Counted from the first letter of the stretch, positions 11,587 to 24,355 are shown. The stretch: DNA of 27,449 bases from a virus (IMGVR_UViG_3300020044_004996:1-27449), one strand, 5' to 3'. Numbers and translations: made by a program. The notes: a model not told the origin generated them from the sequence alone.

Positions 11587-11791
11587 TTTCCATTTCGGAA
11601 ATAGTTTCTTCTTGTTCTATTCCTGTATAATTGATCGCTTCAGGTTCAAATAAGTAACCTAAACCAATAGATTGATAGTAAGTAAATCGCTTTGTATCTA
11701 TCTTATCTACTTCGATTCGTCTTTCCCCAAGAACTGAATCATATTTTACTATTACCTTACCTTTAAATTCGTCTTTAATTTTCATTTTCAA
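11546..11791 (-). CDS. Hypothetical protein with basic C-terminus
   Basis: 81 aa ORF ending KPKRRRKKSE, overlapping both neighbours. Confidence 0.6.
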   Translation of the reverse strand: MKMKIKDEFKGKVIVKYDSVLGERRIEVDKIDTKRFTYYQSIGLGYLFEPEAINYTGIEQEETISEMENVEKPKRRRKKSE

Positions 11792-12305
11792 GTTTTATTC
11801 GTTTTAAATCTTCTTTTATTTCTCTTATCCAATAGTGAGCGGTTACATACGGAAGGTTGAAGTATTTACCCATCGCCCGTGCTGTAGTATAACCCTTATC
11901 GTAGTAAGCTTCAAATATAATTAACTTAATCCTATCTTCAATCGTGTTTCTATAAATCTCAATACAGGATTTATGAAGTTGATATTTGCGTTCCTGCTCT
12001 ATCTTATATATTAAATCGCTATCGTCATTTGTTTCGTTATTCGTGTATTCCATAGCCGTGACTGATTCGTCTTTATTCGATTGTGAAGTGTTCCACAATA
12101 TTTGTTTTTTGATTGTGTTTAGTAGATAGCTTTTAACTTCGTTTTCCGTGTTTAACTCGGGATTTAGTTCTACTAAATAAAGATATGCGTTATTGATTAC
12201 GACATCGGCAGTTATAGTGCTATTCATTCGCACCAAAAAATAATTAGTGTATTTTCTAATCTCGGAGTAGTTCGTGTTTATGTATGTGTCAAGAATTGTT
12301 TTCAA
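11775..12305 (-). CDS. Sigma-70/ECF-like transcription factor, putative late regulator
   Basis: Region-2-like DVVINNAYLYL...YLLNTIK and a C-terminal HTH (TARAMGKYFNLPYVTAHYWIREIK). Start moved to the in-frame TTG at 12305, which overlaps the upstream gene's end. Confidence 0.6.
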   Translation of the reverse strand: MKTILDTYINTNYSEIRKYTNYFLVRMNSTITADVVINNAYLYLVELNPELNTENEVKSYLLNTIKKQILWNTSQSNKDESVTAMEYTNNETNDDSDLIYKIEQERKYQLHKSCIEIYRNTIEDRIKLIIFEAYYDKGYTTARAMGKYFNLPYVTAHYWIREIKEDLKRIKLENEN

Positions 12306-12492
12306 CCCATTGCATAAAATCCTTAAACCATACCCGCCTTCTAACGTTGGAGCAAAAACACTCTCCATCCTTTTTCCCCGTTTTTAGTTCTTTAATCTTC
12401 TTTAACTTATTCAGACTAACTTTTGAATATTTAATTACGTCCTGCGAAGCGTTTATTTCGTTTATTACTTCAAGTTCAATTTGTTCAAACAT
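12289..12492 (-). CDS. Hypothetical protein (CxC motif)
   Basis: 67 aa ORF containing ECFCSNVRRR; coupled to neighbours. Confidence 0.55.
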   Translation of the reverse strand: MFEQIELEVINEINASQDVIKYSKVSLNKLKKIKELKTGKKDGECFCSNVRRRVWFKDFMQWVENNS

Positions 12493-13112: not shown

Positions 13113-13120
13113 CAAATATA
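13113..13120 (-). promoter_or_regulatory. Bacteroidota sigma-A -7 box (TATATTTG)
   Basis: Matches TAnnTTTG, 30 nt upstream of the 13082 ATG and just downstream of a terminator. Confidence 0.65.
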
Positions 13121-15748: not shown

Positions 15749-15756
15749 CAAATATA
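15749..15756 (-). promoter_or_regulatory. Bacteroidota -7 box (TATATTTG) for the ERF operon
   Basis: TAnnTTTG followed by the leader TCAAACAATTAAATTCAAATTATG. Confidence 0.7.
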
Positions 15757-17115: not shown

Positions 17116-17123
17116 CAAATATA
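17116..17123 (-). promoter_or_regulatory. Bacteroidota -7 box (TATATTTG)
   Basis: Followed by the leader TCAAACAATTAAAACTTAAATTATG, nearly identical to the ERF leader. Confidence 0.7.
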
Positions 17124-18425: not shown

Positions 18426-19382
18426 TCAAAATGGAACATCGCCTTTACTTTGTTTCATCTTTTCGCTAAACGAAAGTAATTCTTTTCCGTTAACTAAATC
18501 GGGTTCAATTAAAGGTAGTTGTTTAGGTTTTGTTGGTTCGTGTTTACGTAATGGGTCAACTGAATTAATCTTGAATCCTAAACCATTGTTAAATTCACAA
18601 AGTACAGGTTCATCTAATCTCGTATGCATTCCGCCCGTGTCCATATCCTTAATTTTTTCTACGTTTACCATAGTGTAATACTTCATTGTTTCGTGTTTTA
18701 TTAATCTATGAATTACAAACATATCGTCGCATCTATTTAAAAATGCCTTACCGCCTTCAACGTGGTCTTTTAATGGTGGCTTAAGGTGTCCTTTCCACAT
18801 ATGTCCATCTGAATATAAATTACCGCTTCTACCACTTTCGCTGTTTGGATGCGTGTTTATGTATATTGACATTCCTGATTCATTGACAAACTGCCGTGCC
18901 TGATTTAAAAATTGATAGTTTCCTTCGAATGTCATAGGTCGGTCAAGACCTGTAAAAGGGTCAATTAACCCGGCATCGCATTCGCTTTCTTTAAACAGCT
19001 TTAAAATATCCGAAGGTGTATAAAGTTTATCATTTGGTATAAAATCAAAATACTGCTCAAGAAAAGTTGCCGTGCTTAATATCTTTGAATCTTCTATTTC
19101 GGTGAACTTTTGACCTAAGTACATTTGTATCATATCCCTTAAGATTTGACCTTTCTGATTCTCACCGCTCCAAATACAAAAACGCAGTTCGTGTTTTACT
19201 GCTAATGTTAGAAAGTACCAATTTATCCAATAGGTCTTACCAACGTTATCGTGTCCAAGAATAATATTCAGTTGTTTACGTTTAAAACGAAGATGATTAT
19301 CCAAGTCGCAGTTAATGCCGTAACCCTTTTTTATTTTTCCGTGTTTATAGTCAAGTAGGTATTGTGCTGAATCGCCTATCAT
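18426..19382 (-). CDS. DnaB-like replicative helicase (P-loop)
   Basis: Walker A GHDNVGKT, WSGEN, Walker B LIDP and NTHP motifs; downstream of the initiator gene. Confidence 0.8.
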   Translation of the reverse strand: MIGDSAQYLLDYKHGKIKKGYGINCDLDNHLRFKRKQLNIILGHDNVGKTYWINWYFLTLAVKHELRFCIWSGENQKGQILRDMIQMYLGQKFTEIEDSKILSTATFLEQYFDFIPNDKLYTPSDILKLFKESECDAGLIDPFTGLDRPMTFEGNYQFLNQARQFVNESGMSIYINTHPNSESGRSGNLYSDGHMWKGHLKPPLKDHVEGGKAFLNRCDDMFVIHRLIKHETMKYYTMVNVEKIKDMDTGGMHTRLDEPVLCEFNNGLGFKINSVDPLRKHEPTKPKQLPLIEPDLVNGKELLSFSEKMKQSKGDVPF

Positions 19383-19954
19383 AATCCAAGTTGTTTGTTA
19401 ACATATTCTACTAAATGGTCGGTTTCTTCTTTTTGATATTGTTTAGGATTTCTACTAAACCAAGTTCTTAACCTTTGAGATATACCAAATGTTTTTTCTT
19501 TTTCAAATCTAAGTTTTTTATCATTTTCTCCGTGTTCCGTCCAATAGAAATAAAAGTCGTTTAGTAATTCCCTACCATACTCATCTAAAAAAGGTTTAAG
19601 CGCGTCAGCAAATTTCAATTTGCGCTCTTCTATATTCTTATTCTCATTTACATTAACATTAACATTGTTATTAGCTTCTACTTTGCTTTCATTTTGCTTA
19701 TGTTTTGCTTCCGTTTTGCTTTCACTTTGTTTTGTTTTTGGTTTTTTACCATTCTCAAAACGCTTAATATTTGCGTCAAGTTGCGGTTTAATCAAAGTAA
19801 ATAATGCTTTACTTATGTCGTTAGTAAATTCTATTTCCTGAAAGTTTAAACCATACTCAAAAATTGCATCGTAAAGTTCTGCTTTAATCATTGGAGACAA
19901 GCCCGTAACACTTTCATAAAAGCTGCGGTAAAAAATCATTGAATCACGTTTCAT
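19379..19954 (-). CDS. Putative replication initiator (DUF6291-like N-terminus)
   Basis: RDSMIFYRSFYE...LYDAIFEYGL...IKPQLD, low-complexity NVNVNVN linker, C-terminal FYFYWTE...RLRTW. Confidence 0.7.
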   Translation of the reverse strand: MKRDSMIFYRSFYESVTGLSPMIKAELYDAIFEYGLNFQEIEFTNDISKALFTLIKPQLDANIKRFENGKKPKTKQSESKTEAKHKQNESKVEANNNVNVNVNENKNIEERKLKFADALKPFLDEYGRELLNDFYFYWTEHGENDKKLRFEKEKTFGISQRLRTWFSRNPKQYQKEETDHLVEYVNKQLGL

Positions 19955-19972: not shown

Positions 19973-20061
19973 AAAAAACCCCATTAAATCCGTAGGCTCT
20001 CACTTCTACTTCATTAACAGGGTTCATAATACTTTTAGTTCTATTTTGTGAGAGCGAACTA
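19973..20061 (-). ncRNA. Structured 5' leader RNA, copy 1 (kissing loop + terminator-like stem)
   Basis: Hairpin loop GCUCUCAC is complementary to distal loop GUGAGAGC; UGAA/GGAU internal loop; U-tract; -7 box at 20067-20074. Confidence 0.7.
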
Positions 20062-20066
20062 TTTTA

Positions 20067-20074
20067 CAAATATA
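20067..20074 (-). promoter_or_regulatory. Bacteroidota -7 box (TATATTTG)
   Basis: Immediately upstream of leader copy 1. Confidence 0.65.
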
Positions 20075-20080
20075 TAAAAA

Positions 20081-20731
20081 TTAATTTATAATATTTTCGT
20101 CATTTTCACGTTCAGGTTCCCAAGCCATTGAAAATTCCTTATCTGAAAACATTTCAATTAAACCGCTTATTTGTGTTAATCTTAAAACTTCATCCCTATC
20201 CATTCCAAGTTCTTTACAAATTTTTTCATCAGACCAATTTCTTCTTTTTAAATCAACTACAATATCAGACATTGATTCTACTTTATGTTTACCTCTTGCT
20301 CTATTGTGACGAATTGTTGAAGCGACTCTATCATTTTGTCCTTTTTGAGATTCTCTAATAGTAACTACAGGTAAATATCCAAAAACCCTGCTTTGAATAT
20401 CTTTACATTCTTTACCTACTCTATTTCTATGAAACCCGTCTATAACTTCCCTTGTCCCATCATTATTGTCCATAGAAACAATAGGCTGTGTATATCCATC
20501 ATTTGAAATTGAAAGCCTTAATAATTCCATTTCAGGTGGTGCAACTGAATTCGGGTTATAATCATTAGCGTAAACAGTTTCATTTTTAACCCATAAAACA
20601 CAATCTACTGGTTCAGATTTAAATGGTGATATTTCGTGTAAAGCTAATTTAATTTCATTTATAGCATATACTTTATTATCTAAATCCATATTAGATAACT
20701 CATTAATTAATTCATTGATTTTTGTTTTCAT
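20081..20731 (-). CDS. ibrB: IbrB-like ParB/Srx-domain protein
   Basis: EPVDCVLWV, ANDYNPNSVAPPEM, GYTQPIV, VIDGFHR and TIRHNRARGKH motifs. Confidence 0.85.
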   Translation of the reverse strand: MKTKINELINELSNMDLDNKVYAINEIKLALHEISPFKSEPVDCVLWVKNETVYANDYNPNSVAPPEMELLRLSISNDGYTQPIVSMDNNDGTREVIDGFHRNRVGKECKDIQSRVFGYLPVVTIRESQKGQNDRVASTIRHNRARGKHKVESMSDIVVDLKRRNWSDEKICKELGMDRDEVLRLTQISGLIEMFSDKEFSMAWEPERENDENIIN

Positions 20732-20736
20732 AATTA

Positions 20737-21951
20737 TTAATTTAAAAATTTATTTTCTATTCTTTGGCGTTTTTTTAATTCCAAATATTTTTGATATGCT
20801 TCTGTTTTATGTTGAGTAAAACCAAGACCTTTACACCAAAAATCATTTCTTAATAAAGATTTACAAACCCTTCTCCAACTTGGTGCTAATTTTTGCGACT
20901 CTAATAAATATGGCGCTTCATCAGGGATACCATTATCATAACCTCTTTCTTTCCACCATTTTATAAACGTAAATATTTTATTCATATAATGCTCTTTAGT
21001 CTTTTCAGGTATACTATTTAGAAATAACATAGCAAATGATTCCCAAGTATGGTTATTTGGTTTTGTTATTTTATTATAACCAGTTATAGAGCCACTTTCA
21101 TTTATATATAATGCTCCTGAATTTGCTCCATTAACTCTTGTAACAACTTTTGCCCACGTTTCAGGTTCTATTAAATGAAATAACCATAAGCCTCTTCTTT
21201 GGTCATCTCCATATGGTTGGCAAATTCTTTGTTGATGAATAGATAAACCAGCCTTAAACATTAATTCATATAACTGATTATATCTTTTATTTTGATTCTT
21301 AGCGTGATAAATCCAAATATCTTCTGTTGTCCAATCATAAATTGGATATAAATTATAAACATTATTAGTCACTTTTGTAGTATAGCATTTATTGTCAAAT
21401 GTTTCTTTTATATTTGATGAAATGGTTCTATATCTATTTAATGATTCATCTGAACGTATACCGACTAAACAAGCTGTAGTTTTACCTTGTGAATACCATT
21501 CTCCAAATTCAGGTACAAATTCTTCAAATTCCATCCCGTCTCTAAAGAAATTAAAATAATTCAAATCCGTTATTGATATTTTATTTGGGGTTCTAATCCA
21601 ATTTTCTTGTTGCTCGGAGTCCCAGCATTTCCAAAATGGTTCATAAACAGAAACTGCATTTCTTAAATGAATAGGTAAACAAACCCAATATACATCTACA
21701 AATTCCTTATATTCCTCTATGCATTTTTCAATATGTTCAATTGTTAATTTATATTGACCTTCTAAATCAACTATTAACAAGCCTATTTTAATCTTTCTTT
21801 TTTTACATTCATCCATTACTAAATGAAGCATAACGGTTGAATCTTTACCTGCACTAAATGATAAATATACTTTTTCAAAATTGTTAAATGTATATTCAAT
21901 TCTTTCTTTTGCGGCTTCAAAAACATTTATATTTAATCTAAATTTAGGCAT
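20737..21951 (-). CDS. ibrA: IbrA-like PAPS-reductase-family (DUF3440) protein
   Basis: PP-loop SFSAGKDS, VGIRSDESLNR, YPIYDWTTEDIW, QRICQPYG and SWRRVCKSLLRNDFWC motifs. Confidence 0.85.
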   Translation of the reverse strand: MPKFRLNINVFEAAKERIEYTFNNFEKVYLSFSAGKDSTVMLHLVMDECKKRKIKIGLLIVDLEGQYKLTIEHIEKCIEEYKEFVDVYWVCLPIHLRNAVSVYEPFWKCWDSEQQENWIRTPNKISITDLNYFNFFRDGMEFEEFVPEFGEWYSQGKTTACLVGIRSDESLNRYRTISSNIKETFDNKCYTTKVTNNVYNLYPIYDWTTEDIWIYHAKNQNKRYNQLYELMFKAGLSIHQQRICQPYGDDQRRGLWLFHLIEPETWAKVVTRVNGANSGALYINESGSITGYNKITKPNNHTWESFAMLFLNSIPEKTKEHYMNKIFTFIKWWKERGYDNGIPDEAPYLLESQKLAPSWRRVCKSLLRNDFWCKGLGFTQHKTEAYQKYLELKKRQRIENKFLN

Positions 21952-22322
21952 AATTGTATTCTTTTATTGTTAATAATCCAATGATTTAAAACTTTTTCAG
22001 CATTACTATTTGCTCTATCCTGAACATTTTTTTCTAACATATTCCAAATCTCCATTGTTACTATTGAAGGAATATTTGCGTAAAGACAACAAGCACCTTG
22101 ACCTAAATACGCTATTTTATTTAAAGAAGGATTTGTAAAATTATGTTCACAAGAATATTTCCACTCATTTATTGCTCTATACATATTTTCTAAAGTTAAT
22201 TTTTCTGAATTAAACATTTCAATTCCTTTAGTAATTAATATTTTTTTTTCTTCTCCACTGCAATTATTATAAAAACCAGCTTTAAAATCTTCCCACCTCC
22301 AATAAGGATGATAAATTCTCAT
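21933..22322 (-). CDS. Hypothetical protein heading the IbrAB module
   Basis: MRIYHPYWRWEDFKAGFY...SCEHNFTNPSLNKIAYLGQGACC. Start moved to the ATG at 22322, because the longer start lies inside the structured leader. Confidence 0.7.
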   Translation of the reverse strand: MRIYHPYWRWEDFKAGFYNNCSGEEKKILITKGIEMFNSEKLTLENMYRAINEWKYSCEHNFTNPSLNKIAYLGQGACCLYANIPSIVTMEIWNMLEKNVQDRANSNAEKVLNHWIINNKRIQLCLNLD

Positions 22323-22342
22323 AATATAAAATTTAAATAAAT

Positions 22343-22435
22343 AAAAAAAACCCCTTGAAATCCTGCGCATCCTACCTCACATTCATTCAAAGGGTCAATA
22401 ATACCTTTACGAGTTTATAATGTAGGATGAACTCG
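22343..22435 (-). ncRNA. Structured 5' leader RNA, copy 2
   Basis: Hairpin loop CAUCCUAC is complementary to distal loop GUAGGAUG; same UGAA/GGAU internal loop and loop sizes as copy 1; U8 tract. Confidence 0.7.
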
Positions 22436-22439
22436 AAGA

Positions 22440-22447
22440 CAAATATA
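22440..22447 (-). promoter_or_regulatory. Bacteroidota -7 box (TATATTTG)
   Basis: Immediately upstream of leader copy 2. Confidence 0.65.
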
Positions 22448-24223: not shown

Positions 24224-24231
24224 CAAATATA
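24224..24231 (-). promoter_or_regulatory. Bacteroidota -7 box (TATATTTG), early operon
   Basis: Followed by TCAAAACAATTAAACAATTAACTATG. Confidence 0.7.
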
Positions 24232-24282: not shown

Positions 24283-24308
24283 AAAAAACCCCTACCGAAG
24301 TAAGGGTT
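24283..24308 (-). terminator. Intrinsic terminator with cUUCGg tetraloop
   Basis: AACCCUUAC-UUCG-GUAGGGGUU-UUUU, downstream of the lysis operon. Confidence 0.85.
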
Positions 24309-24347
24309 CTCGTTAACAATTAACCTATTCAATTATGAAGAATGGTA

Positions 24348-24355
24348 CAAATATA
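24348..24355 (-). promoter_or_regulatory. -7 box (TATATTTG) about 40 nt upstream of a terminator
   Basis: Exact TAnnTTTG match with no minus-strand gene between it and the terminator. Confidence 0.5.

Follow-up and report, generated by a model that had tools for sequence, protein, structure and literature searches.

A widespread kissing-loop terminator leader of Bacteroidota phages, likely a valve on DNA-replication genes

A virus record (IMGVR_UViG_3300020044_004996) that encodes terminase, portal, ERF, NinG and primase/helicase proteins carries two kissing-loop leader RNAs of about 90 bases, both on the minus strand, at 19973..22447. What does such a leader do ahead of a replication operon and, a second time, ahead of an ibr cassette? 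The whole stretch of DNA analysed, 27,449 nucleotides (27.4 kb), is called the window here. In each copy, a word in the loop of a 5' hairpin (P1) is complementary to the loop of a terminator-like hairpin (P2), and this loop-loop helix is called the kiss. The initial annotation offered a pseudoknotted cis attenuator, a riboswitch-like element or a stand-alone sRNA. Our analysis indicates that this is a real, widespread and uncatalogued kissing-loop terminator leader of Bacteroidota phages that likely acts as a valve on DNA-replication genes. The features of the locus are collected in Table 1.

Table 1. Features of the leader region, with positions counted from the first base of the window
Feature	Position	Strand	Description
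Copy 2 promoter box TATATTTG	22440..22447	-	Bacteroidota -7 box; predicted start site 22435, the first base of P1
Copy 2 hairpin P1	22410..22435	-	6 bp, 14-nt loop; loop word CAUCCUAC at 22429-22422
Copy 2 linker	22397..22409	-	Single-stranded, AU-rich, 13 nt
Copy 2 P2 and U-run	22343..22396	-	Terminator-like (predicted termination); hairpin 22396-22349, U-run to 22343
129-aa ORF	21933..22322	-	First gene of the ibr cassette
IbrA-like protein	20737..21951	-	PAPS_reduct + DUF3440
IbrB-like ParB-family protein	20081..20731	-	phrog_2159, E 3e-70
Copy 1 promoter box TATATTTG	20067..20074	-	Bacteroidota -7 box; predicted start site 20062
Copy 1 hairpin P1	20036..20061	-	6 bp, 14-nt loop; loop word GCUCUCAC at 20055-20048
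Copy 1 linker	20025..20035	-	AU-rich
Copy 1 P2 and U-run	19973..20024	-	Terminator-like (predicted termination); hairpin 20024-19977, U-run to 19973
DUF6291 protein	19379..19954	-	Likely replication initiator; first gene behind copy 1
11-bp tandem repeats	19671-19747		Inside the DUF6291 gene; five to seven repeats
Primase/helicase-type P-loop protein	18426..19382	-	phrog_18375, phrog_239, phrog_19; second gene behind copy 1

Both copies lie where the initial annotation had placed them, with every element identical base for base, including the 14- and 10-nt loops and the 8-bp complementarity. P2 of copy 2 is built from 11 bp, a 4x4 UGAA/GGAU internal loop, 4 bp and a 10-nt loop, with GUAGGAUG at 22375-22368. 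In copy 1, the complement of the loop word, GUGAGAGC, lies in the P2 loop at 20003-19996. ViennaRNA recovers P1, P2 and the symmetric 4x4 internal loop in both. The folding energy of copy 1 has a z of -3.0, and none of 200 shuffles is as good; copy 2 reaches just -1.3 (20 of 200 shuffles as good) and so is not carried by folding energy alone. The chance that a random 14-mer and a random 10-mer from the window form eight Watson-Crick pairs is 0.00065. The two copies are orthogonal, since pairing of one copy with the other amounts to -1.0 and -0.6 kcal/mol, compared with -12.6 and -10.4 kcal/mol for each with itself.

The promoter box TATATTTG occurs 12 times in the window against 3.3 expected, 11 of them on the minus strand. 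Bacteroidota promoters carry this box at -12 to -5, according to the available text of PMC6847099 and PMC9723704, so that transcription is predicted to start at or one base before P1 in the two leaders. A promoter box is found directly upstream in 147 of 161 members of the leader family. None of the other minus-strand boxes in the window is followed by a kissing leader. Three of these (17116-17123, 15749-15756 and 13113-13120) are followed by short leaders without structure that run into small ORFs and the ERF block; these genes are therefore not gated by a kissing leader. Another site, at 24284-24355 on the minus strand, has a promoter box and, about 45 nt on, a strong G+C hairpin with a UUCG loop and a U-run, after which a second promoter lies at 24231; no kissing match is present there.

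The leader belongs to a large family. The first family pattern demanded no complementarity and returned 81 viral loci, 76 of which have the loop-loop match and both P2 stems; the remainder are four chance matches and one truncated locus. Loci with relatives of the gene behind copy 1 also have the leader, with different loop words. A wider pattern recovered 120 of about 330 estimated loci, and model R1, in which the kiss is not modelled, scores above 79 bits at 79 of 80 loci from this wider pattern. The parsed family comprises 136 distinct bodies with 35 loop words. Before counting, false or truncated parses were dropped (L141 and L236, and L247 as well in the 161-member context count), together with three duplicate or spurious broad hits, and six members of non-canonical length were removed to give a set of 102 canonical members.

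All four helices covary in a 34-sequence alignment (A1), in line with the compensatory changes first noticed between the two copies. The kiss in A1 is 97.8% paired, with two-sided changes at six of eight pairs and no G-U; this percentage leans upward because A1, like the 102-member set, was filtered for a kiss of at least 6 nt. Its score is 0.69, compared with at most 0.13 for slid partners, and is reached in none of 500 shuffles, a test that is inflated by the relatedness of the sequences. For both reasons, the 76 of 81 loci found without any filter are the fairer figure. Among the 102 canonical members, with the same upward lean, 807 of 816 kissing pairs are Watson-Crick, one is G-U and eight are mismatched, whereas the terminator stem has 193 G-U among 1122 pairs. 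The reading as a covarying, pseudoknotted cis attenuator is thus well supported by sequence comparison. A second alignment (A2) was left out because short-word subtypes were misaligned.

The 102 members contain 25 loop words. Six of the eight kissing positions are variable, and the last two pairs (A-U and C-G) are invariant in all 102. The P1 loop is 14 nt long in 89 members, the spacer is 13-14 nt in 85, and 98 have four or five G/C in the word. The internal loop is UGAA/GGAU in 89 and UGAA/GGAG in 12 of the 102. It is replaced in 19 of 139 bodies by UGAGUA/GAAA, which we take to be a loop-E-like motif, and is flipped (GGAU on the 5' side, UGAA on the 3' side) in all five kissing matches from a scan of 30 loci for the flipped form. 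A kink-turn consists of a 3-nt bulge beside tandem G-A pairs; this assignment was rejected, as the internal loop of the leader is a symmetric 4x4 loop with pairs on both sides. An extra pairing between the 3' side of the P1 loop and the linker is also unsupported, with one two-sided change in three pairs. A model-free scan found looser relatives with shorter or unrelated words. Upstream of the initiator gene, L014-L016 and L021-L022 represent a different subtype, missed by R1, in which the word is repeated across the start codon. Furthermore, a recurring spacer of about 30 nt separates the U-run from the start codon in L358, L381, L385, L386, L474 and L558:3140-3175, often with the same small gene next.

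Which genes follow the leader? The covariance-model search with R1 found matches in 47 of 50 viral records, a second strong match being present in just one, and the leader occurs in 40 of 42 whole or near-whole records. A relative of the initiator or the helicase lies within 2.5 kb downstream on the same strand in 32 of these 40; five others have different genes of the replication block and three have none that matched (G184 and G197 were dropped from this count as spurious). In agreement with the short distance to the ATG described at the outset, an ORF follows in 160 of 161 members, with a median gap of 19 nt from the U-run. Just 4 of 160 have a TAnnTTTG box in the gap from U-run to ATG. The downstream gene is therefore normally reached by read-through of the terminator, and a stand-alone sRNA, one of the readings first offered, is unlikely, because the gene behind the leader usually has no promoter of its own.

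Of the two partner modules in the initial annotation, the replication operon holds for the family and IbrAB does not. The ibrAB genes occur in 1 of the 42 records, the window alone, and at least 9 of 80 ibrA loci have the leader directly ahead of the cassette. The closest ibr relatives (L279 and L313) share the first leader and have a different second leader. Taken with the replication context, these comparisons identify copy 1 as the usual replication leader, and copy 2 likely arrived with the accessory cassette: the ibr genes were likely inserted ahead of copy 1 with copy 2 at their head. The IbrAB link is incidental to the leader family.

We assume the initiator and origin roles of the DUF6291 gene from its position and the layout of lambda O; the tandem repeats inside it are likely origin iterons. 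The name IbrA for the PAPS_reduct + DUF3440 protein is likewise our assumption, adopted from the initial annotation and general knowledge. The 129-aa ORF, whose start was set by comparison with L045, L058 and L261, matches no Pfam, PHROG or NCBIfam family and accompanies ibrA in six of six loci where either one matched. An AUG at 22370 in the loop of copy 2 is in frame with this ORF in the window. It was rejected as a conserved leader start, since just 6 of the 24 members sharing that word have it in frame. A 197-aa ORF of no family (11775-12368, minus strand) lies immediately before the terminase region, has relatives in 18 of 42 records and is a candidate late-gene regulator.

Several carriers are cultured: Tenacibaculum phage Gundel_1, Cellulophaga phages phi18:3 and phi19:3, and Flavobacterium phage 11b. 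Gundel_1 has two copies, one ahead of a primosomal protein gene and one ahead of an Ant antirepressor gene. phi18:3 and phi19:3 have two copies each, and the phi19:3 stretch has 98-99% matches in phi46:3 and phi13:2. The U-run is broken in one Gundel_1 copy and in the phi18:3 copy. Another observation in Gundel_1 (L557:16785-16890) is a leader of reversed polarity, with a purine-rich word in P1 that is nearly the complement of the word of window copy 2. Host genomes rarely carry the leader. There was one convincing match in 151 genomes of a Flavobacterium family sample, where two of the three model matches were plain terminator-like or not clearly this leader, and none in 151 genomes of a Prevotellaceae-centred order sample. 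A pattern scan of genome contigs yielded 120 loci, none of which passed the structural descriptor. A looser pattern hit 3 of 401 Flavobacterium-family genomes; the reversed control hit more, and no match was complementary. The Riemerella GRNRAP2 and LoVEphage regions showed no leader.

How might the kiss act on transcription? Comparing sequences demonstrates P1, the two parts of P2, the 8-bp kiss and a location between promoter box and start codon; the order of folding and the outcome for transcription are what we infer from them. We put at about even the chance that the leader attenuates transcription in cis, with the kiss as the likely read-through state. Since the RNA would start at P1, the loop word would be displayed first. 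As the complement emerges, the 8-bp helix would form while the 3' strand of the terminator is still to be transcribed. P1, kiss and P2 would then stack to about 32 bp (~90 Å), while the 13-nt linker between their bases would reach about 83 Å, so that the kissed form may hold the terminator open at its base and the polymerase would read on. If the kiss comes late or the P1 loop is occupied, the terminator would close and release an RNA of about 90 nt. The race between kiss and terminator would set how much initiator and helicase is made and how much transcription crosses the likely origin within the initiator gene. At the head of the accessory cassette, copy 2 would be the same valve.

Nested folding of growing transcripts places the helix of word and complement at 73-85 nt, before the terminator, in both copies. 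An ordinary antiterminator helix is weak, with a median of -5.4 kcal/mol against -13.5 kcal/mol for the stem. The modal geometry is 5/8/19 bp with a 13-nt linker. With constants of our own choosing (2.8 Å per bp and 5.9 Å per nt), the ratio of stack to linker has a median of 1.08 and exceeds 1 in 69% of 116 members, which is borderline, and a bend in the stack would let the kiss and the full terminator coexist. The correlation between linker and stack is uninformative because folding artefacts shorten the linker. The early helix, a stack slightly beyond the reach of the linker and the steric model for guanidine-IV led us to choose the kiss as the read-through state. This direction, borrowed from guanidine-IV and a rough geometry with a thin margin, could be right or wrong in equal measure.

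A possible though improbable extension is RNA-only feedback of the P4 CI / P1 c4 kind. Leader RNA that accumulates would pair in trans with nascent P1 loops of the same word, block the cis kiss and force termination; in some members, it would also cover the start codon. A cut in the AU-rich linker might free the P2 loop. The outcome would be an early burst of replication genes followed by shut-off, with word-specific exclusion of co-infecting phages. This extends the cis attenuator rather than excluding it.

In 8 of 160 members, at least 6 nt of the loop word recur after the U-run and before the start codon, compared with a null mean of 0.29 and a maximum of 3 in 1000. These repeats span four different words, although the cases are not independent, as three share one word and three another; further repeats were seen by eye in L389 and L014-L016. 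In the window, however, neither copy has a third copy of the word, the longest match being 2 nt. The failure of the window copies to pair with each other fits separate words for separate leaders. Likewise, all 14 co-resident pairs (12 record groups) differ in word, but this is expected by chance (P 0.28-0.49). The Gundel_1 copy ahead of the Ant gene also fits feedback, as does the RN-WUU word, presumably the RNase E consensus, in 74 of 102 linkers, a raw count.

On the other side, words do not change faster than their surroundings. Change per site in close pairs is 0.14 for the word, against 0.18 for P1 and 0.14 for the inner stem; in the closest pairs it is 0.056 against 0.032 and 0.031, which we count as no faster. 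Within its own genome, a word turns up elsewhere about as often as expected (ratios 0.84-0.96, n = 37), with neither enrichment nor depletion. The tests for a fast-evolving word, for targets across the genome and for avoidance of the same word in co-resident copies gave no support. In a search confined to tyrosine integrases (PF00589), as distinct from serine integrases, repressors and plasmid-like lysogeny, none of 20 complete relatives had a match, and a self-kissed RNA has no free loop. An address switch, in which the cis kiss admits the first transcripts and accumulated leader RNA shuts off leaders of the same address in trans, is improbable. If true, it would be a protein-free, programmable timer and exclusion switch with an 8-nt address per leader. 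Co-resident copies would then work as orthogonal channels, and a lytic phage would be able to control co-infecting relatives according to their address.

In a further, unlikely reading, the kiss would coexist with the full terminator and compact a stable RNA of about 90 nt, termination would be the default, and a phage or host protein would toggle read-through by binding the folded leader or modifying the polymerase, as Q of lambda modifies the polymerase at pR'/6S/tR'. The geometry allows a kissed and fully closed state. The fixed lengths of loop and linker together with the invariant A-U and C-G pairs could form a protein site, and the GA-rich internal loop is conserved in the canonical members. 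However, since that loop is flipped or replaced in relatives, a structural spacer fits better than an oriented binding site. Moreover, no antiterminator family, the Q family included, was matched by family profiles among the 15, 18 and 8 proteins scanned, a set that covers part of the window proteins.

A small-molecule riboswitch of guanidine-IV architecture, with a nucleotide-pool or stress metabolite licensing replication, is very improbable, because the two-hairpin, kiss-to-terminator layout, the invariant AC/GU end of the kiss and the two purine-rich loop bases beside it stand against six variable kissing positions (compared with loop bases conserved at 97% in guanidine-IV), shorter and unrelated words, a Gundel_1 copy with the purine-rich strand on the other hairpin, and near-absence from the two host samples. 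The variable positions and the flipped or replaced internal loop likewise speak against the riboswitch-like element of the initial annotation, if this is meant in the small-molecule sense.

The initial annotation assigned no named family, and this holds for Rfam 15. The window has no match at the gathering score and three weak, unrelated matches at E ≤ 10, all outside the leaders, and a further 20 + 5 leader loci have none at E ≤ 1. A literature search that covered few subscription papers found no description of the leader, including in the accessible parts of PMC2864571 and bioRxiv 10.64898/2026.09.22.753630. The tables of PMC10690425 (10,006 viral candidates), as distinct from its alignments, hold no match to the leader motifs; an earlier unnamed computational prediction may exist.

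The Bacteroidota phages concerned are abundant and several have been cultured; in them, the leader would be an RNA-level control point for replication genes. With naturally orthogonal words and carriers in culture, the mechanism can be tested directly, and the leaders are possible attenuator parts for Bacteroidota genetics.

In lambda, the pR'/6S/tR' region controlled by Q places a promoter, a short leader and a terminator before an essential operon. The phage leader has the same arrangement, but it heads replication instead of late genes and contains a covarying tertiary helix. The c4 antisense RNA of P1 and P7, for which we use the Rfam/Weinberg listing and general knowledge, and the P4 CI RNA are promoter-proximal RNAs, each containing a stretch that can pair with a complementary site further upstream in its own transcript, and both precede replication or antirepressor genes. 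P4 CI has a seqA/CI/seqC layout, as outlined in the accessible text of PMC4825925, and the downstream word copy at the start codon in the 8 of 160 relatives is seqC-like. Unlike these RNAs, the phage leader has one word instead of two and a built-in intrinsic terminator; the window leaders have no downstream copy and no C4 model match, and the 20 complete carriers have no tyrosine integrase. In the IsrK system of Gifsy-1, a single promoter yields both a short leader that ends at a terminator and a longer mRNA made by read-through, according to the same text (PMC4825925). The phage leader would share this design, and one carrier has it ahead of an antirepressor. However, IsrK pairs with long downstream ORF sequence and activates translation, whereas the phage leader makes an 8-bp internal loop-loop contact.

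The closest layout is that of guanidine-IV (GGAM-1), in which, in the available text of PMC7736828, the loop of a 5' hairpin base-pairs with that of an intrinsic terminator hairpin, steric antitermination is proposed and the ligand pocket depends on loop bases conserved at 97%. As far as the accessible part of PMC11611296 goes, single-molecule work supports the steric model. The phage leader shares the pairing of 5' hairpin loop and terminator loop and likewise has no overlap-type antiterminator. In contrast, it has no conserved loop pocket, a variable word and no Rfam match, and it heads the initiator/helicase block (32 of 40 records), whereas guanidine-IV genes are of the sugE/mepA type. In layout the leader resembles guanidine-IV, in context it resembles P4 CI/c4, and it belongs to neither. 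To our knowledge, kissing-loop antitermination is otherwise known only from the guanidine-IV riboswitch, and the phage leader would extend it to a ligand-free, sequence-programmable form.
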